In this document: positions 359-63,012 of the stretch, one piece after another | Numbering within the stretch: position 1 is the first letter of the stretch | How the letters are laid out: each line of letters opens with the position of its first letter | Source: Ignavibacteriales bacterium | GTDB taxonomy: Bacteria; Bacteroidota; Ignavibacteria; UBA10030; UBA8401 | Assembly (NCBI GenBank): GCA_016182545.1 | Contig: JACPGG010000032.1 | Location: 8,816-72,815, forward strand | Length of the DNA: 64,000 nucleotides | Direction: 5' to 3' | Translations under genes and position numbers: made by a program | Notes under the pieces: model-generated | What the model saw: the letters and a program-made list of their open reading frames with translations, nothing else | Told to the model about the DNA's origin: nothing | Database searches by the model: none

Positions 359-640
359 ATGGCAGAAACACACATCCAAACCGAGGAAGAACTCCTCGAC
401 GAAATTAAGACTCAAGAGCCCGCAAAAGCGATCTTGTTCAATGACGAAGTGCATACTTTTGAAGAAGTTATTGAACAGATCATGAAGGCGACAGGCTGCG
501 ATCTTCCGACAGCGGAGGGCTTGACCTGGGAAGTTCACCACACCGGCAAAGCGATAGTGTTTACCGGAGAGTTGGTGAAATGCCTGCAAGTGACAAGCGT
601 TCTGGAAGAAATCGAATTAATGACACAGGTGGAGGTGTAA
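359..640 (+). CDS. clpS: ATP-dependent Clp protease adaptor ClpS
   Basis: 93 aa, typical ClpS length and core (…VHTFEEVIEQIMKATGCDLPTAEGLTWEVHHTGKAIVFTG…). No clpA follows. Confidence 0.75.
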   Translation: MAETHIQTEEELLDEIKTQEPAKAILFNDEVHTFEEVIEQIMKATGCDLPTAEGLTWEVHHTGKAIVFTGELVKCLQVTSVLEEIELMTQVEV

Positions 641-642
641 AT

Positions 643-933
643 ATGACTACAACCTCAGAAATTAAAAAAAAACTTCAGCAACATAAGACTGAGTTGCGGA
701 ATAATTACTCTGTAAAGTCGCTGGGAATTTTCGGTTCATTTGCGAGAAACGAACAATCCGATACAAGCGACATAGATATTTTGGTTGACTTTGAAAAACC
801 GATTGGTCTACAATTTGTCGATCTTGCTGAGTATCTCGAATCAATACTTCACGCCAAAGTCGATCTTGTCTCCAAAAATGCAGTGAAACCAAAGTTAATG
901 AAGTATATTGGTCAAGATATTCAATATGTCTAA
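643..933 (+). CDS. Nucleotidyltransferase-domain protein (MNT-type antitoxin of a HepT/MNT pair)
   Basis: GIFGSFARNEQSDTSDIDILVDF is the minimal nucleotidyltransferase motif (GS…D.D). Start chosen at the internal ATG (MTTTSEIKK) to avoid overlap with clpS. Confidence 0.7.
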   Translation: MTTTSEIKKKLQQHKTELRNNYSVKSLGIFGSFARNEQSDTSDIDILVDFEKPIGLQFVDLAEYLESILHAKVDLVSKNAVKPKLMKYIGQDIQYV

Positions 934-1267
934 ACGGGATATAGCATTACTGCTTGAGGACATACTGGAGAGTATAGAAAAGATTGAAGATTACACGAAG
1001 AATATCTCGTTCGATGATTTCAAGGAAAATGGATTAGTCTTTGATGCTGCAGTCAGAAATCTTGAAATTATCGGTGAAGCCTCCAACAAAGTTTCAGAAG
1101 AATCAAAGAACGCAATGACGTCAATACCATGGAAGCAAATTCGTGGTTTGCGAAACCGGATCATCCATGAATACTTCGGCGTCGATATCAATATTGTCTG
1201 GTTCATTATTAAAAATGAATTGCCCAAGTTAAAAATAGAAATAGAGAGAGCGATCAAATCAAAATGA
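926..1267 (+). CDS. HepT-like (DUF86) toxin, partner of the preceding nucleotidyltransferase
   Basis: RNRIIHEYFGVDINIVW matches the DUF86/HepT Rx4HxY motif. It overlaps the upstream gene by a few nt, as is typical of TA pairs. Confidence 0.7.
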   Translation: MSKRDIALLLEDILESIEKIEDYTKNISFDDFKENGLVFDAAVRNLEIIGEASNKVSEESKNAMTSIPWKQIRGLRNRIIHEYFGVDINIVWFIIKNELPKLKIEIERAIKSK

Positions 1268-42008: not shown

Positions 42009-42419
42009 TTATTCAATATACCGCCAGGGCTTCCCTTTCGTGTGGACTCGAAAGACAAGAATCTTTGCTCCCTTATCGCCGGATATTGCCTGATGTTTCT
42101 TTTTGAAAGGGACATGACCAACTTCGCCGGGCTTACCAACAATGGGTGGTTCACCTTCGATCTTGATTTCAACCTCTCCTTCCATATAGTAATGGAATTC
42201 CTCCCCGGGATGCCAATGACGATCCAACGTTGTATTGGGCGGAATCTCCACCAGATCCATTAATACCTCCCGATCTTTCGTGAACTCCTCCGAGAGCGAC
42301 GCCGTTATCAGATTCTTAAACGAAGGCATCGCCTGACTGTTCGATTCAGCAGGTGTTTTGCTCGAAACCAGTATGAGTGCAAGAATGGTGATCGATCCCA
42401 TGACAAACAGATATCTCAT
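42009..42419 (-). CDS. Cupin-domain protein (secreted)
   Basis: Signal peptide plus cupin motifs HWHPGEEFHYYMEGEV…GEVGHVP. Confidence 0.65.
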   Translation of the reverse strand: MRYLFVMGSITILALILVSSKTPAESNSQAMPSFKNLITASLSEEFTKDREVLMDLVEIPPNTTLDRHWHPGEEFHYYMEGEVEIKIEGEPPIVGKPGEVGHVPFKKKHQAISGDKGAKILVFRVHTKGKPWRYIE

Positions 42420-42595
42420 AACTACCTCCTCTGGTTAATTAGAATGTACTACTAAACGGATCGGACTCCGCCAAATGTGGGCAAGTGTTTGGGAACGTTT
42501 ATTTTTACGAAACCCTGATTCGTGACATGCGAAGTAGAACTTCGATCATTGCCGTCCTCAACTAGATTGTCCGACAGGGCTATATGTAAGCTGGC

Positions 42596-43471
42596 TTATT
42601 TGTTTAATATTTCTAAAATATTTTTTAAGTCATCTCTCTTAAGTTTCAGTTTGTCCGACTCTTCTCTGAAATAATTTCCCATTAAATCTAGTAGGTGTTC
42701 TCTATTTGAATACGCCTGATTAGCTTCGATTATCCGAGGCAGTAATACATTGGTTCTTTCATCAGAAGGGTTTGCTAAACAAAGAGCCTTTAACGGTTTT
42801 AAAAAATGCTCTAAAAGAGTTTGAATATCAGTCCTATTTTGAATTTTAGCCCAATTATGAATGATTAGATTAAACTCTTTAAGAAATGGATCTTTACCAG
42901 GAGATATCTTATTTCGTTTTGCAAAACTTAGTAGATAATCGTGATAACGAACTATTGCATTTGTGTGCTCATTCCAAATATCAATGTATGATTTATGTCT
43001 ACCAATAAACTCGATAAATTGATCTTTAGTAATTTGACTTTGTCTTCCAAAGAACGCTAAAGTCTTTAGAAATAAATTGTACGCCTTAATTCTTTCAGAT
43101 TTATATTTTTTCGAACCATAAACGAAGGATTTATAAATATCTACTGAAGGCAAATTTGTTAAATATCCAGTGTGGTAATTTCCTTCCTGATAAACATAAT
43201 CTTGATACTTTTTTGAAATAATAGAGTCACTCAATTCCTTAAAAGCAATACTTTGTTTTTCTATAGGCTCCAATAGTGTATTTAACTGGACGATTATTAA
43301 CTCTCGTAATTCTTTTTTACTCCTAACTTCTTTTCGATATTCGATAAATCTATTTATTATATATCCAAAAATAAATATCGATATAGTAACTACCGTCGTA
43401 AATATTGCATCATATGATACTCCATAAAATGTTAAATTATCTAGCGGTTGCGTAATAATATTCATTTGCAA
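42596..43471 (-). CDS. Hypothetical single-pass membrane protein in the AT-rich islet (candidate effector/partner of the TIR protein)
   Basis: 291 aa with one N-terminal TM helix (AIFTTVVTISIFIFGYIINRFI) followed by a Lys/Glu-rich helical domain. I recognise no known family. Low G+C like the adjacent TIR gene. Confidence 0.45.
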   Translation of the reverse strand: MQMNIITQPLDNLTFYGVSYDAIFTTVVTISIFIFGYIINRFIEYRKEVRSKKELRELIIVQLNTLLEPIEKQSIAFKELSDSIISKKYQDYVYQEGNYHTGYLTNLPSVDIYKSFVYGSKKYKSERIKAYNLFLKTLAFFGRQSQITKDQFIEFIGRHKSYIDIWNEHTNAIVRYHDYLLSFAKRNKISPGKDPFLKEFNLIIHNWAKIQNRTDIQTLLEHFLKPLKALCLANPSDERTNVLLPRIIEANQAYSNREHLLDLMGNYFREESDKLKLKRDDLKNILEILNK

Positions 43472-43516
43472 TTGACTTATTCTACTTCTCAGTGTATCGT
43501 TGGGAACGATGTAAAA

Positions 43517-44608
43517 TTAAAGTTTTTTCAATATTAGTTCCACAAATTCTTCAGGTGTTGTCTTCCTAAGATCAATATATGATACAGTGCTTGGTAAACC
43601 TGGTACTTCAGAATCATCAAATTTGGCTGGAAGGATATAAACGTCGTTAGTAACTAAAGCCCTTGCTTGTGCGTGTTGTCGTTCGTGAGTAGGCCAAGCT
43701 TTTTTAATGTAATGTTCTGAGACAAACATAACTACAAATCGAGATCTATTACTATAAATATCAGCAAGGTGATCTACAAGATTCTTACCCCATAATGATG
43801 CTTTTTCAAATGAATCATAAAATACTTTTATTCCTTTTGTTTTTAGTATATCTGCACATCGTTCAACATAATCACGATTCTCTCCAGCAAATGAAAAGGA
43901 TACATCATAGTATTCCTTAGTAACATTTTTTTTAGAAATTGTTTTTGGACTTTGAACCTTCGGAGGTACAGATATTACTGAAGATGTTTGTCGATTACGA
44001 ATTGGGATCCCTAACTCTGCTACACTCTTTTCAGTATCTTTAATTTGCTTAATTCTATTATTCAATTGTTCGTCAATAAACCCAACTAGAGTCGTATTGA
44101 ATGATACTATAGAGCCTTGTTGCCAACCAAGATATTCTTTTATTCCAGCAACCTGTTTTTCAAAGTAAGATTTGGTTGCGGTCGCATCTGTTCCTAATAC
44201 GGTTGTTGATATTAGAATCTCATTATCTGATATATCAGCATGCGGAGGATTATAATTAAATTGGCTTGGTTTAGCAAAAAAAAGGTCCTTATCTCCCATG
44301 AATGGTACAAAGTATGTGACCCTTATTCCTGGCAAATAGAATGGTCTTGAACGATCACGTATATATCTGTCTGTATCACCACTAACATCAACCTTCGCTT
44401 CTTCTACAGATGCGCTAACTGCACCTTCAATAAGCTCGATTGGATTTATAGCATACTCGTTGTAAATCTGTTCCGCTATTTGAGCAATTGATTCTGATGA
44501 AACATCCTTTGAGGATAACTTTGCAATTCTTTTCGATACCTTTTCGAATTGAAAATTGATTGCAGAATCTAAGTTGTATTTATGGAAAAGGAAATTATCT
44601 TTTGACAT
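43517..44608 (-). CDS. TIR-domain protein with ~210-aa uncharacterised N-terminal domain (candidate anti-phage defence sensor/NADase)
   Basis: The C-terminal ~150 aa read YDVSFSFAGENRDYVERCADILKTKGIKVFYD…SRFVVMFVSEHYIKKAWPTHERQHA…ILPAKFDD. This is the bacterial TIR pattern (YDVF[IL]S[FY]A…D…flavodoxin-like betaA/alphaA and a WC/WP…E motif). The N-terminal domain is not recognisable. Confidence 0.7.
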   Translation of the reverse strand: MSKDNFLFHKYNLDSAINFQFEKVSKRIAKLSSKDVSSESIAQIAEQIYNEYAINPIELIEGAVSASVEEAKVDVSGDTDRYIRDRSRPFYLPGIRVTYFVPFMGDKDLFFAKPSQFNYNPPHADISDNEILISTTVLGTDATATKSYFEKQVAGIKEYLGWQQGSIVSFNTTLVGFIDEQLNNRIKQIKDTEKSVAELGIPIRNRQTSSVISVPPKVQSPKTISKKNVTKEYYDVSFSFAGENRDYVERCADILKTKGIKVFYDSFEKASLWGKNLVDHLADIYSNRSRFVVMFVSEHYIKKAWPTHERQHAQARALVTNDVYILPAKFDDSEVPGLPSTVSYIDLRKTTPEEFVELILKKL

Positions 44609-44672
44609 TGTATTTTCGGTGAATTACAGATCGTCTAACGATCTGGTACTAAATTGCGGGCAATGTTTATTA

Positions 44673-46010
44673 TCATCTGTAATTCTCAAACGCCGTTACG
44701 CCGTTCTTATCGACAACAGAAATGATGAGAGGCGATGAGGCTGGTTTTGCAGCGCCGACGGAAAATGCATTGGCAACGCGCTGCGCTGTTTTGGCAAGGA
44801 TCTCTTTGTTGTCAGTAAAGATCTCGGCGATCGGCTCTCCCTGTTTCACAGCATCGCCCGCTTTCTTCTTCAGCAGGATCCCCGCTTTCGGATCGATCAC
44901 GTCGTCCACTTTCGTCCGTCCTGCGCCGAGCATGATGCCGGAGAATCCCAACTCCAGCGAATCGATAGAGGTAACAAATCCGGATGCCGGTGCGGTGATT
45001 GTTTCGGAATACTTGGAGCGGGGATACTTTTCAACGTTCTCGAGAAACGAAATATCTCCCCCCTGTCGCTTCACAAGTTCCAAAAATTTCACGTACGCTT
45101 TCCCGTTCTTCACCGCTTCTTTGCAACGTTCGATCCCTTCGGCAAGCGACCCCGCTTTCTTCCCCAGCATCACCATCGCACCGCCGAGCACGCAGGTCAG
45201 TTCCATCACGTCAGGCACACTTCGTCCACGCAAACATTCTACCGATTCGACAACTTCATTCCAATTGCCAATGGCATTGCCGAGCGGTTGATTCATATCG
45301 GTAATAAACCCGACCGTCTCTTTGCCGAACGACGTGCCGATACCGACCAGTGCCTGCGCAAGTTCCACCGATTGTTCGTGCGTCTGCATGAATGCGCCGC
45401 GTCCCGTTTTCACATCCAGCACCAGCGCGTCGATCCCTTCCGCAAGTTTCTTGCTCATAATGCTGCCGGCGATGAGCGGGATGCATTCCACGGTCGATGT
45501 CACATCCCGCAGCGCGTACATTTTCTTGTCGGCGGGGGCGATCTCTTTCGTCTGCCCGATCATCACCAGTCCGAGCTCGGCAATCACGTTCTTGTATTCA
45601 TCGATGGTAAGATTCGTGCGGAATCCGGGGATCGATTCGAGTTTGTCCAACGTGCCGCCGGTATGCCCGAGTCCGCGCCCGCTGATCATCGGCACCGGTA
45701 CGCCGCACGCCGCAACGATCGGCGCAAGCGGCAGCGAAATTTTATCGCCGACCCCCCCGGTGGAATGCTTGTCCACTTTGACGCCGGGGATATGCGAGAG
45801 ATCAATGATATCGCCGGAGTGAAGCATCAGCCGGGTGAATTCTGCGGTCTCTTCCTTGTTCATTCCGCGGAAGAATGTCGCCATGAAAAACGACGAGACC
45901 TGATAGTCGGGGACGGTACCCTCCACATAGCCGTTGATGATGAACTTCATTTCATCGGATGTAAGCGGATGCCCGTCTCTTTTTTTTCGTATGATCTCGT
46001 TTGCGGTCAT
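44673..46010 (-). CDS. pdp: Pyrimidine-nucleoside (thymidine) phosphorylase
   Basis: HSTGGVGDK…SGRGLGHTGGTLDKLE…conserved over the full length; 445 aa. Confidence 0.85.
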   Translation of the reverse strand: MTANEIIRKKRDGHPLTSDEMKFIINGYVEGTVPDYQVSSFFMATFFRGMNKEETAEFTRLMLHSGDIIDLSHIPGVKVDKHSTGGVGDKISLPLAPIVAACGVPVPMISGRGLGHTGGTLDKLESIPGFRTNLTIDEYKNVIAELGLVMIGQTKEIAPADKKMYALRDVTSTVECIPLIAGSIMSKKLAEGIDALVLDVKTGRGAFMQTHEQSVELAQALVGIGTSFGKETVGFITDMNQPLGNAIGNWNEVVESVECLRGRSVPDVMELTCVLGGAMVMLGKKAGSLAEGIERCKEAVKNGKAYVKFLELVKRQGGDISFLENVEKYPRSKYSETITAPASGFVTSIDSLELGFSGIMLGAGRTKVDDVIDPKAGILLKKKAGDAVKQGEPIAEIFTDNKEILAKTAQRVANAFSVGAAKPASSPLIISVVDKNGVTAFENYR

Positions 46011-46082
46011 TGAGTTTCGAGGTTTGAGATTCCCGGTTCGTGTTTCAGATTTCTGGATTCTTCGGTCGTCACCAAAAACGTT

Positions 46083-46207
46083 CCTCCCTCAGAATGACAA
46101 ACTAGAACTCATCTCAAAAATGGATGGTCATTGCGAGGGAGCGTAGCGACCGAAGCAATCCCCGCAGTTTCAGGAGATTGCTTCGCCAAAAAACGGCTCG
46201 CTATGAC
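46083..46207. repeat. GTCATTGCGAGGGAGCGTAGCGACCGAAGCAATCC … GGAGATTGCTTCG…CTCGCTATGAC structured palindromic repeat
   Basis: The two halves are reverse complements (gtcattgcgagg/ctcgctatgac; cgaagcaatcc/ggagattgcttcg). An upstream cctccctcagaatgac is the rc of the gtcattctgagggagg variant. Confidence 0.6.
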
Positions 46208-46235
46208 AATTTTTCATTTTTGAGACCACTTCTAT

Positions 46236-46772
46236 TTATTTTTGCCTTCCCGCACTCATCAAAATCCCCACGATCGTCTTTCCGTCGACGATCTCCTGCC
46301 GTTCGATCATGGCGAGGGCATCGTTCATCGGCACGCGCATCAATTGAATCGATGCTTCTCCTTCTTCCAGCGCCTGCCCTTTACCGGACTGTTGAATATT
46401 CTTTGCTTCAAAGATATGGAGCACTTCGTTGCAAAATCCGGGCGTTGTGTAGATCGCGGTCAATTTCTTCCACTCTGTTGATGCGTACCCTGTCTCTTCC
46501 TGCAACTCACGCTGCGCGCAATGGAGCGGATCCTCCCCTTTGTCCAGTTTTCCGGCGGGAAGTTCGATCACTTCCTTTGCGAACGGATGGCGGTACTGCC
46601 TCACCAGCAGCAGGTCGTTATTCTCAAAGAGAGCAACAACAACCGCGCCGCCGGGATGCTCAATGATCTCGCGGATCGTTTCCGTACCGGAAGGATACTT
46701 CAAACGGTCGACAATCAGGTCGACGATCTTACCGTGATATTTTTTTTCTCGTGCGAGAAGTTCGAAGTGCAT
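46236..46772 (-). CDS. NUDIX hydrolase, ADP-ribose pyrophosphatase-like
   Basis: Nudix box GKLDKGEDPLHCAQRELQEETGY (GX5EX7REUXEEXGU). Confidence 0.75.
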   Translation of the reverse strand: MHFELLAREKKYHGKIVDLIVDRLKYPSGTETIREIIEHPGGAVVVALFENNDLLLVRQYRHPFAKEVIELPAGKLDKGEDPLHCAQRELQEETGYASTEWKKLTAIYTTPGFCNEVLHIFEAKNIQQSGKGQALEEGEASIQLMRVPMNDALAMIERQEIVDGKTIVGILMSAGRQK

Positions 46773-47877
46773 TCTTCGTTTCGAATTTGTGGTGGACTAC
46801 CTGCTGCGGGAACGGGATCTCGATCTTTGCTTTAACCAACTCGTTATAGATGGCGATCCGGAGCGCTTCGGCGGTCACGAACTGCACCTTGAAATCCGGA
46901 ACACGGCAGAAGAGGGAGAAATTCATCGACGAGTCGGCAAGTTTCATCAGGTATGCCTCCGGTGCTGGAGTTCGCAACACATGTGCGTTCGCGCTCGCAG
47001 CGGAGAGCATGATGTGTTTTACCTTTTCGATATCGGAGCCGTAGGCAACGGAGACTTCCACCACCACACGAATTTCGCCGTGCGGGTAGCCGTAGTTGAC
47101 GATGCGTGTCTTCACTAGATCGTTATTCGGAACGATGAGCAGGTTATTGTCGAAGTCGAGTATCTTCGTGCTGCGCAATCCGATCTCGTACACATCTCCA
47201 ATCTCACCTGTCGGTATCTTCACCCTGTCTCCCACGCGGAACGGGCGGTCGATCATGATCACGAAACCGGAGATCATGTTGGAGATCGTATCCTGTGCGG
47301 CAAGTCCCAAAGCAAGCGAGCCGGCACCGAGAATGGTGAGAATGCTGGAGATATTCTGACCGAATTTGTCGAGTACAACGATCGCTGCCACGGCAATGAT
47401 GACGAATGTGGCAACACGGTTCAGCAGCAGCGGCAATGTCTGCCCGAGTTCGTCCTCATTATTCCGTCGTGCTGTTCTGCGGACCGTTTCGGTGATGATC
47501 GTGCGGGTGATCTTCACTACGATCGTTGTAAGGAGGATCGCAGTGATGATATAAAGGACAATGTTGCTGTAATCGATGAAGGAGAGAATACCATCGTTCG
47601 TGGTTCTCAAGCCGAGGCGCAGTTCTTTCATTCCGAGATACAAGCCGAGGATGCCCGAGAGGGCAACGATCCGTTCAAGGAGAATGTCGAGGATGCGGTC
47701 GTCGATCTTATTTGTTGTTTTGGAAATGACCTTTCGTCCTACGGTATTCAGAAGGAACTTGAACAGTTTCCCCGCAAAGAGAGTCGCAATGCCGACCGCA
47801 AGACCAAGCACTGCATGGTACGGCAGTCTGTTGCCGCCGAAGAGTTTCAGTACTTGATCGAAGAATGAGTCGAGCAT
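46729..47877 (-). CDS. mscS: Small-conductance mechanosensitive channel (MscS family)
   Basis: TM helices followed by the MscS beta-domain (GDRVKIPTGEIGDVYEIGLRSTKILDFDNNLLIVPNNDLV). Confidence 0.8.
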   Translation of the reverse strand: MLDSFFDQVLKLFGGNRLPYHAVLGLAVGIATLFAGKLFKFLLNTVGRKVISKTTNKIDDRILDILLERIVALSGILGLYLGMKELRLGLRTTNDGILSFIDYSNIVLYIITAILLTTIVVKITRTIITETVRRTARRNNEDELGQTLPLLLNRVATFVIIAVAAIVVLDKFGQNISSILTILGAGSLALGLAAQDTISNMISGFVIMIDRPFRVGDRVKIPTGEIGDVYEIGLRSTKILDFDNNLLIVPNNDLVKTRIVNYGYPHGEIRVVVEVSVAYGSDIEKVKHIMLSAASANAHVLRTPAPEAYLMKLADSSMNFSLFCRVPDFKVQFVTAEALRIAIYNELVKAKIEIPFPQQVVHHKFETKNALRTSRTRKKISR

Positions 47878-48034
47878 ACGCAATACCAATGAGTGAATTA
47901 CAAATTCCAAGCAACAAAAAATCAAATAACAATTACATCACAATAGCCAATACTCAAACGGCATGTATGATTTTCTCGGATTAAAAATTGGAATATATTT
48001 GTGATTTGGAATTTGGTTCTTGGAATTTCTTCGA

Positions 48035-60284: not shown

Positions 60285-62051
60285 TTACTTCACCAATAAC
60301 ATCTTCTTTGTCTCAACAAAAGAACCTGATTGCAATTTATAGAGATATATACCCGATGCCAATTTTGAAGCATCGAAATCTACAAAATACAAACCAGCAT
60401 TCTGATATTCATTTATCAAAGTTGCAACTTCCTGACCAATCATATTGTACACTTTCAAAGTTGTTTGTGCACCCTTTGGAAGCGTAAACGATATGGTTGT
60501 TGAAGGGTTGAATGGATTTGGATAATTTTGGCTTAATTCAAATGTACCCACAACCACTCCGTCATCTTTACGAACACCGGTGATGACGTCGTTTGAATAA
60601 TCAACCTTTGTAACGTGCACATCCATACCGGCTACGTTACCGCTAGTGGTCACTGATTGATTGCGCATGAGATGTGCTTTACCGTCATCGCCCATTATTG
60701 GAGCAATGTGCGTAATTTGATCGTTGATTGTCGGTGTGCTTGTTCTATTGGACGGTGTAGACCAACCAGAACCCGCTTTCCATGTTGATGTCCACACATC
60801 TGCAATGGGAAGCGAATCTGAGTAAGTTGCACCCCTGCTATCTTCAATCCATTTCGCTGCAACAATTTGACCATTTTTCGACACGCTCAATTGGTTTTCT
60901 GTTAAGGTCTGAGGAAGATCGCCGTATCCCCAATTTTCATGCGTGGGCAAATCTTTGATCTTAGTTGCGGTCCAGCTACCGCCACTTGCTTTGTACAAAT
61001 GGTATAAACTCCAAAGATCCGGGTTTGCCGTGGTATCAACACCAACTGTCAACCAATGATATCCTCCGGCACCATCAACTGTAAAATCGTTCGCGAAAAT
61101 GTTGTATGCATAATTCGCTGGAACAAGAGCTTTCCACGGAACAATTTCATACTCTGACCACGTTACACCCTTATCGGTCGATTTGGAAATACCCAGCGTA
61201 TAGCTTCCTGTGTCGGATGTTGGCGCCGCGGCAAATTGAGCTCGTACACCAACATAGTAATTACCACCTTGATACACGATGCCAGCAACATCATCAATGA
61301 GTCCATTATGTAGTTTTGCCGTACCAAGCTGTGCAGGATTCGATCCGGTAAACGTAACTCCATCAGCAGCACGGAAAATAGAGATATGACCGTCATCCGA
61401 GTAATTCGGAGCTGCAAACACATACTCAGCTGCACCTAACACAGTCGGTGACGCCATGCTGGAACTCCAAGGAACACCAGCACTATCAATAGTAGCCAAC
61501 GGGCTGTTTGCACCTACACCGGGGTCCGTTCCGTAGATCATCCCACCGAATCCACCGCCAACGAGTAATGGAAATACATATTGCACCAATACGCTATCCG
61601 CCGATGCTGCTTTCGTTGGGTTGTGTAGCGCAATACTTGGATACCGACCGTTTGTGTTTCCGGCAAGTCCAGCACTCAGTGGTCCAATGCGTTTTGTCCA
61701 TGTCGCTCCGCCATCCTTTGAAAAGGCATAAAAAACACCGCCCGATCCACCTGACGCATAACTTGATTTGCTACGATGAATTATGACAAGAGAGTTAGAA
61801 TAAGGGTCGTAGGAAATAGGATTGACATACACATTTCCTGGTCCGTATGCATTAGCCATCGTATCGACCGTTGTATAGGAAAACGTGGCATTTAATTGAT
61901 GAGCTGGAACATTAAATACCACTGAGTTTGCTCGTTCAGCATCTATTACGCGTGGAGCTTTTCCTGCATACTTCAACGACTTACTTCCGGCAAACACCAC
62001 AGTAATGCCTATCATCAACATTGCCAAGGTGTAAAAAAGATTTTTCGACAT
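60285..62051 (-). CDS. Secreted BNR/Asp-box (sialidase-like beta-propeller) protein with T9SS type-A C-terminal domain
   Basis: Asp-box SKDGGATWTK. The C-terminus, …LSQNYPNPFNPSTTISFTLP…VYNMIGQEVATL…GIYLYKLQSGSFVETKKMLLVK, is the canonical T9SS CTD. Confidence 0.65.
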   Translation of the reverse strand: MSKNLFYTLAMLMIGITVVFAGSKSLKYAGKAPRVIDAERANSVVFNVPAHQLNATFSYTTVDTMANAYGPGNVYVNPISYDPYSNSLVIIHRSKSSYASGGSGGVFYAFSKDGGATWTKRIGPLSAGLAGNTNGRYPSIALHNPTKAASADSVLVQYVFPLLVGGGFGGMIYGTDPGVGANSPLATIDSAGVPWSSSMASPTVLGAAEYVFAAPNYSDDGHISIFRAADGVTFTGSNPAQLGTAKLHNGLIDDVAGIVYQGGNYYVGVRAQFAAAPTSDTGSYTLGISKSTDKGVTWSEYEIVPWKALVPANYAYNIFANDFTVDGAGGYHWLTVGVDTTANPDLWSLYHLYKASGGSWTATKIKDLPTHENWGYGDLPQTLTENQLSVSKNGQIVAAKWIEDSRGATYSDSLPIADVWTSTWKAGSGWSTPSNRTSTPTINDQITHIAPIMGDDGKAHLMRNQSVTTSGNVAGMDVHVTKVDYSNDVITGVRKDDGVVVGTFELSQNYPNPFNPSTTISFTLPKGAQTTLKVYNMIGQEVATLINEYQNAGLYFVDFDASKLASGIYLYKLQSGSFVETKKMLLVK

Positions 62052-62652
62052 TGCAACCTCCATATAAGTTTGTGAATTGGTGAAATGGACAACAACATTA
62101 TCTATTGCACGATATACGGTACTGTCACACTCCTTTCTGTGTACCATCAATTAAGTTATGGTATAATGAATTTAAAAAAAGATAGAGTACAAGTATCTGT
62201 TTGTCAAGTTGAAAGTATTTCGACTCGAAGGAATAGAATTCGGTTGGTAGATCAAACTTCATGTGGCGGGGTCCCCTCAATTTAGTTTGAACTATGTTTG
62301 GTATAATAAATAAAAATGAAGTGCATCAGTATAAAGAAAATCTTTGGGTGAGTGTAACAACAATCGATAGTTGATCTTTCATTAATTTTTAATGAATTGC
62401 TACCCAAGTGGAATATAAAGACAGTGGATGGAATTGTCAATAGATGCGACTATTTTCCTTCAAATTTGGGAATATCCCTAAGAGTGGGATTGTATACCAA
62501 ATATGCCCTTATATTTGCCTGCTTTCCTTTCATCCCGTACATCAGGATTATCATCACTTTCTCCCGCTGTTCCATCCCTTATTAATTCGTGATTGGTGTT
62601 TTGTTATTTACATTGTCTTTGTCAAAAAATATTTTTTATATAGGGAGGTAGA

Positions 62653-63012
62653 ATGAAACTCAACAAAAAAGAAGTTGCACAAAACCTGCGGCTATTTGGC
62701 TACAAGAAGTTCGGCACCATGAAAAAATTTGCCGAAGCGCTGGACATGAATCCTTCAACCTTATACTCAGGATATCTGAACGGGCGAAGTTTACCGGGAC
62801 CGGTATTGCTTGTTAAATTGATCGACCTCGGCTGCAACATCAATTGGCTGCTGACGAACAGGGAATCGCCCTTCACGAACGACGATGATCGCATAAAGAA
62901 ACTTGAAGATGAAAATCTCCGTTTGCGTTCCACTGTGCAGCGACCTACCTCACCTGCCGCTTTCGTCGAACCGAAAAAAGTGAACGGAGCATTTGCGGAG
63001 TCTCGAAGATAA
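62653..63012 (+). CDS. Phage CI-repressor-like HTH DNA-binding protein
   Basis: KKFAEALDMNPSTLYSGYLNGRSLPGPVLLVKLIDLGCNINWLLT resembles the phage_CI_repr N-terminal HTH (…WLLTG). Confidence 0.5.
   Translation: MKLNKKEVAQNLRLFGYKKFGTMKKFAEALDMNPSTLYSGYLNGRSLPGPVLLVKLIDLGCNINWLLTNRESPFTNDDDRIKKLEDENLRLRSTVQRPTSPAAFVEPKKVNGAFAESRR

Follow-up and report, generated by a model that had tools for sequence, protein, structure and literature searches.

We analysed a 64,000-nucleotide (nt) stretch of DNA from a metagenome-assembled genome of an Ignavibacteriales bacterium (93-kb contig JACPGG010000032.1; hereafter the window) and focused on an AT-rich islet of ~2.2 kb (42420–44672) carrying two minus-strand open reading frames (ORFs), ORF1 (43517–44608) and ORF2 (42596–43471). 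Our results indicate that this islet is probably a horizontally acquired small defence patch in which two genes function independently, each as a single-gene module. The product of ORF1, a candidate for single-protein defence, has 363 residues from an ATG start, and in it a PDC-S54-type N-terminal domain (N-domain) and a flexible linker precede a C-terminal TIR domain. ORF2 encodes a membrane-anchored all-helical protein from an uncatalogued family. A preliminary description of the window, made from the sequence alone, had proposed that the two genes form a pair made up of a TIR sensor and a membrane effector. On our best reading, what stands is a domain-swap variant of the single-protein TIR defences and an uncatalogued defence-island family, both as leads and not as a new system.

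The proposed pair was examined by its co-localisation in other genomes. Genes were called in 27 loci carrying full-length ORF1 relatives, and all neighbours within 4 kb were clustered. Analysis of these loci revealed no conserved neighbour, the sole cluster present in at least three of them being the TIR family itself, and neither tblastn with ORF2 nor the neighbour clustering detected an ORF2-like gene at any of the 27. Fifteen further ORF2-family loci were recovered, with a 10-sequence alignment used for the metagenome scan, and a TIR or ORF1-like gene was found in none (0/15). With the window included (16 loci), the ORF2 family likewise showed no conserved neighbour, its only common gene cluster being the ORF2 family itself. 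Since co-occurrence was zero in both directions and no neighbour cluster was shared, the pair is not a conserved unit, and the adjacency of the two genes in the window appears to reflect shared residence in one small defence islet. Adjacency within an AT-rich islet is thus no evidence of a system, and the claimed architecture vanishes once other genomes are checked.

The islet lies between the start codon of a cupin gene and the stop codon of pdp, and is marked by a drop in G+C content (GC). In 500-nt windows, GC is 0.28–0.37 inside the islet versus ~0.50 in both flanks. ORF1 and ORF2 together have a GC of 0.319, as compared with 0.471 ± 0.036 in the 1-kb windows of the remaining sequence (z = −4.2), and the islet is the GC minimum of the whole 64 kb. 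At third codon positions (GC3), values of 0.214 for ORF1 and 0.219 for ORF2 were obtained, against 0.51–0.66 for eight neighbouring genes. The AT-rich composition on which the preliminary description had insisted is therefore a strong deviation, and the GC and GC3 anomalies support the horizontal acquisition that it had deduced. The ORF listing confirmed the coordinates of both genes, and matches to Protein Data Bank (PDB) chains confirmed the two flanking genes as a pyrimidine-nucleoside phosphorylase (pdp; E 2.7e-131 to PDB 1brw) and a cupin (E 3e-7 to 1e-4 against cupin-domain chains). A search for mobile-element boundaries found no tRNA, integrase or credible flanking direct repeats at the edges of the islet. 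At its pdp end, a perfect 11-nt inverted repeat (GAATTACAGAT / ATCTGTAATTC, arms 43 nt apart, 44621–44685) extends over the stop codon of pdp and the 5′ leader of ORF1, with a smaller hairpin, CAGATCG-TTAGA-CGATCTG, nested within it; this repeat could be the pdp terminator or a regulatory element of ORF1.

The C-terminal region of ORF1 (residues 233–363; 43520–43912, minus strand) has the flavodoxin-like TIR fold. The TIR peptide quoted in the preliminary description is present in the protein, and the assignment held in profile searches: Pfam TIR_2 (PF13676) matches residues 238–357 with 61.6 bits against a gathering cut-off of 28 (E 1.3e-16), and the PF01582 score likewise exceeds its cut-off. 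Its nearest solved sequence relatives are the bacterial NADases TcpB/BtpA, PdTIR and AbTIR, whose S-x-x-F-x-x-K-x-W-P-x-x-E segment aligns with SEHYIKKAWPTHE in ORF1. The W-x-x-x-E glutamate of TcpB, PdTIR and AbTIR is aligned with Glu309 (codon 43682–43684, minus strand), which is invariant in all 61 aligned ORF1 homologues and which, from the established knowledge of TIR NADases, we take to be the catalytic residue. ORF1 is accordingly a predicted NADase, as judged from its sequence.

The ORF1 family comprises at least 430 proteins, the best 120 of the 430 homologues all being ~365 residues long with an identical architecture. Among genomes sampled at one per species, 508 relatives were found, of which ~27 are full-length; these come from at least six phyla, with members in Acidobacteriota, Gemmatimonadota, Planctomycetota, Verrucomicrobiota, Polyangiales and others. 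The remaining relatives match solely residues ~234–363, that is, the TIR domain, with 54–68% identity. In other proteins this TIR subtype is fused to AbiJ_NTD3, to tetratricopeptide repeat (TPR) arrays, to CarboxypepD_reg/MG4-like beta-sandwich domains, to a Cap4/SduA-like nuclease domain or to further unrecognised domains; judging by these fusions, the TIR of ORF1 is a shuffled module. One such protein (757 residues; locus L087, 7086–9359) joins a Cap4/SduA-like endonuclease domain (PDC-M68A, 1.5e-30) to an ORF1-type TIR, a predicted nuclease-TIR double-effector architecture. The best PADLOC match for the TIR of ORF1 was the candidate family PDC-S66 (5.4e-16). The TIR subtype of ORF1, SFAGE[DN]R...NLxDHLAxIY, is common to many proteins at the 54–68% identity given above, and the W-x-x-x-E glutamate is kept as in the TcpB/PdTIR/AbTIR clade. 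ORF1 matches only positions 110–239 of the 282 in PDC-S66, and the remaining architecture differs.

The N-domain of ORF1 (residues 1–205; 43994–44608, minus strand) had been presented as belonging to no recognisable family. This no longer holds, as ORF1 residues 1–234 match positions 1–233 of the 410-position PADLOC profile PDC-S54 (9.7e-45), and the module occurs in at least three architectures. The C-terminal half of PDC-S54 (~234–410) is unmatched by ORF1, which carries its TIR there. Pfam and NCBIfam gave no match for the N-domain, and a 20-sequence N-domain profile searched against PDB sequences found no relative, SpbK included, the one match being a chance hit to cyanovirin (E 1.5). In the AlphaFold2 model of ORF1 (predicted local distance difference test, pLDDT, 86.5), the N-domain is composed of an alpha/beta unit (helices within 13–52; strands 65–74, 91–104 and 130–138) and a 57-residue helix (142–198). 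It is followed by a Ser/Lys/Pro-rich linker (residues 206–232; 43913–43993, minus strand), modelled as disordered ahead of the TIR, with low confidence (pLDDT <50) at residues 211–215 and 219–226.

A tblastn search of plasmids retrieved 17 records with the N-domain, falling into two groups. The first consists of genuine PDC-S54 proteins (Thauera, Rhizobium, Nostoc, Paludisphaera), matched over positions 2–407 with E ~1e-150, in which the N-domain is joined to an unrelated C-domain of ~200 residues without Pfam match. The second, on Bosea and Rhodopseudomonas plasmids (L100, 4983–8700, and L102, 3983–7695), consists of stand-alone 201-residue N-domain proteins. Their genes are located directly upstream of a gene for a ~1035-residue protein, a fusion of a Peptidase_C14 caspase and a HamB-like DEAD/DEAH helicase; in Bosea the N-domain gene overlaps this gene, and in Rhodopseudomonas a gap of 5 nt separates them. 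In both plasmids small TIR-domain genes adjoin, as do a separate caspase and a metallophosphoesterase in Rhodopseudomonas. The arrangement has the look of a multi-gene conflict system not described before.

Comparison of the three N-domain architectures showed that solely L7, F8, F103, G105 and R185 are invariant, while the conserved acidic residues of the TIR subfamily are not retained. In every architecture the domain ends at the same LG-x-P-x-R junction. Because the invariant residues are only structural, the acidic residues are not kept and the boundary is constant, the N-domain fits a putative non-catalytic binding or assembly module swapped between effectors. PDC-S54, itself a single-gene PADLOC candidate, thus shares with ORF1 a homologous N-terminal part of ~200 residues, its boundary and its occurrence in defence-island or plasmid contexts, but differs by its C-domain, with ORF1 covering ~57% of the model. 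If this reading is right, the front half of PDC-S54 would be a portable module that occurs with a TIR, with an unknown C-domain and with a caspase-helicase partner, and such a module would be a good target for the discovery of new phage triggers.

The genes around ORF1 relatives vary from locus to locus. DUF932 fragments come after the closest relative (60% identity), and other loci contain a short prokaryotic Argonaute (pAgo) with TIR-APAZ (SPARTA-type; two Pyrinomonadaceae loci), type II methyltransferases or PDC-M50A. The plasmid neighbourhoods of the N-domain include type I restriction-modification, RelE/HigA, HipA, PIN and NACHT genes. In the two Pyrinomonadaceae metagenome-assembled genomes (L015, 5142–9110; L032, 4571–9559), the ORF1-family gene lies immediately downstream of the SPARTA-type pAgo, TIR-APAZ and a 137-residue gene, and the ORF1-like frame is split or followed by a second TIR-family ORF.

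SpbK, from ICEBs1 of Bacillus subtilis, is a single-gene TIR NADase acting by abortive infection, in which a 94-residue four-helix N-domain docks on the phage portal and clusters the protein, so that the TIR domains assemble head-to-tail into the NADase site (PMC12847820). ORF1 resembles it by its N-terminal domain, linker, C-terminal TIR, conserved glutamate and want of a dedicated partner gene, but its N-domain is a ~200-residue alpha/beta unit with a 57-residue helix and not a four-helix bundle. By analogy, we infer that ORF1 is probably an SpbK-like one-protein sensor-linker-TIR NADase. The N-domain would recognise a phage-derived trigger and/or drive oligomerisation, which the helix 142–198 could mediate, and the flexible linker would let the TIR domains cluster head-to-tail, creating the NADase active site. 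NAD+ would then be depleted, possibly with cyclic ADP-ribose (cADPR) isomers as products, and growth of the infected cell would cease by abortive infection, a course that experiments have demonstrated for SpbK. In that case ORF1 would add to the single-protein TIR NADase defences a domain-swap variant that is unannotated and, with at least 430 proteins, widespread.

Alternatively, ORF1 could be a ThsB-like signal generator whose effector lies elsewhere in the genome, that is, a split or orphan Thoeris-type system. Like Thoeris, ORF1 has a bacterial TIR in a defence context, and it gives weak PADLOC ThsB1 matches (1.1e-5, 0.02 and 0.029). The SpbK study, in which the receptor of a cADPR product, if any, must be elsewhere in the genome, also counts in its favour (PMC12847820). 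However, the best TIR relatives of ORF1 are the stand-alone NADases TcpB, PdTIR and AbTIR, no neighbour is conserved in the 27 loci from at least six phyla, and no ThsA (SIR2/SLOG/Macro) gene is adjacent to ORF1 or found in any of these loci. We therefore regard an orphan Thoeris as unlikely. The preliminary description had already remarked that no ThsA, cyclase or STING partner stands beside the TIR gene, which was borne out, the neighbours being ORF2, pdp and cupin; features of CBASS or Pycsar (a CD-NTase, a cyclase, or STING or SAVED on the TIR) were also without any PADLOC or Pfam match on ORF1 and ORF2.

ORF2 encodes 291 residues from a TTG codon, or 289 in the NCBI version, which starts at the ATG at 43465. 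A single transmembrane (TM) helix (residues ~22–42; 43346–43408, minus strand) was read from the sequence, and a confident all-helical bundle was modelled for the remainder, in agreement with the layout first described (one N-terminal TM helix and a helical body). Since a basic stretch (R41–R56) follows the TM helix and the N-terminus is acidic, the positive-inside rule predicts an N-out/C-in topology, which would place the bundle in the cytoplasm. When 1.84 billion representatives were searched exhaustively with HMMER, 325 relatives were obtained at E≤1e-3 and 177 at E≤1e-10, nearly all of ~290 residues, which sets the family at no fewer than 325 clusters at 50% identity. Word-indexed searching recovered a single relative when ORF2 alone was the query and four when a 67-sequence profile was used. 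Four longer relatives (P0166, P0225, P0232 and P0257; 425–455 residues) retain the TM helix and basic stretch, and are extended ahead of the conserved helical body by a signal peptide, ~90 extracytoplasmic residues and an extra coiled coil, with no enzymatic domain; this suggests that some members of the family may have an additional domain exposed extracellularly.

No Pfam or PADLOC model covers ORF2 or any of 67 family members. The AbiGii profile is matched by neither ORF2 nor these 67, Abi models by neither ORF2 nor 66 relatives, and the PADLOC 1TM effector model was matched by a single one of the 67, at 0.0065 only. ORF2 itself, with its single TM helix, has no profile match to known TM effectors (PADLOC 1TM/2TM, SLATT-like), and no SLOG, Macro, SAVED or STING nucleotide-binding domain could be recognised in the all-helical protein. 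A McpS/TorS-type helical sensor domain was considered for its fold and rejected: identity is 9–12%, de novo designed bundles score equally, and the bundle is predicted to be cytoplasmic. Viral contigs contained relatives of neither ORF2 nor the N-domain, so they give no evidence of a phage-borne origin for either gene; plasmids contained no ORF2 relatives.

The neighbourhoods of the ORF2 family include several defence genes. AbiGi lies directly upstream of the ORF2-family gene in L089 (4283–6076; AbiGi PADLOC 2.3e-43), which places the latter where AbiGii is expected; this position may be fortuitous or may point to an alternative partner of AbiGi. A DUF2971/PDC-S31-like gene is directly upstream in L092, which also contains a PDC-S45-like trypsin and another AbiGi; a pAgo C-terminus, an AbiC/AbiP-like gene and GmrSD are found in L095; HNH_5 stands beside the gene in L112; and L108 is an island rich in ParE/Phd, Gp49/HTH and BrnT/CopG pairs. 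Trypsin_2 was tried as a recurrent partner (L092, L108/L109) and discarded, the two proteases failing to cluster at 1e-4 and being absent from the other loci. In the three loci long enough for gene and contig to be compared, the ORF2-like gene has the lower GC (0.28 vs 0.40 in L001, 0.40 vs 0.53 in L090 and 0.42 vs 0.49 in L089).

ORF2 is most likely an independent, mobile, membrane-anchored cytoplasmic helical bundle, a stand-alone Abi-type membrane protein, and we infer a defence role for it. Lactococcal-type Abi proteins (AbiC/AbiP-like) are similarly small, single-gene, N-terminally membrane-anchored and located in defence islands, one of them sharing the L095 island with an ORF2 relative; the analogy is by context and topology only, with no sequence or profile similarity. 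The defence role first proposed for the two genes remains the most plausible, as both families recur among defence genes. If so, ORF2 would mark an uncatalogued family of ~290 residues that recurs in defence islands and is missed by current defence-finder tools.

Other readings give ORF2 a partner. In one of them, the ORF2 family forms a membrane-anchored partner or effector class that plugs in after interchangeable defence genes (TIR, AbiGi, DUF2971, GmrSD, HNH_5) and cooperates with ORF1 here, the PDC-S54-type N-domain being, separately, a universal phage-sensing or assembly module that drives the TIR, the PDC-S54 C-domain and the caspase-helicase. We consider this scheme improbable. That ORF2-family proteins are generic downstream partners, as effectors or immunity-like proteins, for whatever defence gene is upstream could be argued from eight loci in which the ORF2-like gene follows a co-oriented defence-type or unknown gene by 37–197 nt. 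The upstream genes are the TIR gene of the window, AbiGi (L089), DUF2971/PDC-S31-like (L092), GmrSD (L095), HNH_5 (L112), and genes for proteins of 191 (L111), 183 (L001) and 466 residues (L090). However, these genes are mutually unrelated, and L091, L093, L094, L096 and L106 have no co-oriented upstream gene within ~350–700 nt. Co-orientation is moreover common in islands, ORF2 does not match AbiGii, and GmrSD and HNH enzymes are self-sufficient. A generic partner role is thus quite unlikely.

In a dedicated two-gene system, the TIR protein would sense infection and, by making a nucleotide signal or acting directly, activate ORF2 as a membrane-disrupting effector. The logic of a TIR plus an effector is well established from Thoeris, and the two genes lie on the same strand with nearly identical GC3, separated by a 45-nt spacer (43472–43516, minus strand; 51 nt to the ATG at 43465) that contains no terminator-like site. 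A weak promoter-like match (TTCCCA-16-TAGAAT, 9/12) lies just upstream of ORF2, but sites of this kind occur no more often in this region than in shuffled sequence. Shared orientation is uninformative on linkage because every gene across 42009–47925 is on the minus strand. Together with the want of co-occurrence at the 27 and 15 loci and of a recognisable nucleotide-binding domain in ORF2, this makes a dedicated system a poor prospect. The least likely reading, that one or both genes serve no defence purpose (addiction or toxin-like cargo, or an AT-rich membrane protein with a housekeeping role), draws on the housekeeping neighbours at two ORF2 loci (L001, L113), the resemblance of the ORF2 fold to generic helical sensor bundles and the want of an experimental record for either family in the literature, but is countered by the patchy distribution and variable neighbours of both families, the lowered GC of ORF2-like genes in the loci where it could be compared and the recurrence of both families beside recognised defence and toxin-antitoxin genes.

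Several points nevertheless weigh against two independent defence modules. The near-identical GC3, the 45–51-nt spacing and the missing terminator suggest that ORF1 and ORF2 may have arrived together and be co-transcribed. The defence association of the ORF2 family by neighbours comes from a handful of informative loci, without a formal enrichment statistic. Finally, in the literature searched PDC-S54 is unmentioned and PDC-S66 appears in two genome surveys only, with no experiment on either or on the ORF1 and ORF2 families.

Two other low-GC patches were observed in the window. The first (580–1267, plus strand; 1-kb GC 0.39), just upstream of alaS, contains overlapping ORFs of 117 and 119 residues. 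The first ORF matches a minimal nucleotidyltransferase (PDB 1wot, 8.7e-7) and in the second an R-x4-H motif of the HEPN/DUF86 type is present as RNRIIHEY; together the two look like a putative MNT-HEPN toxin-antitoxin pair. The other patch (61750–63012; 1-kb GC 0.37–0.40) spans the 5′ end and upstream region of a gene for a 621-residue secreted protein, and the 119-residue ORF beside it (62653–63012) resembles a helix-turn-helix regulator, as judged by eye only.

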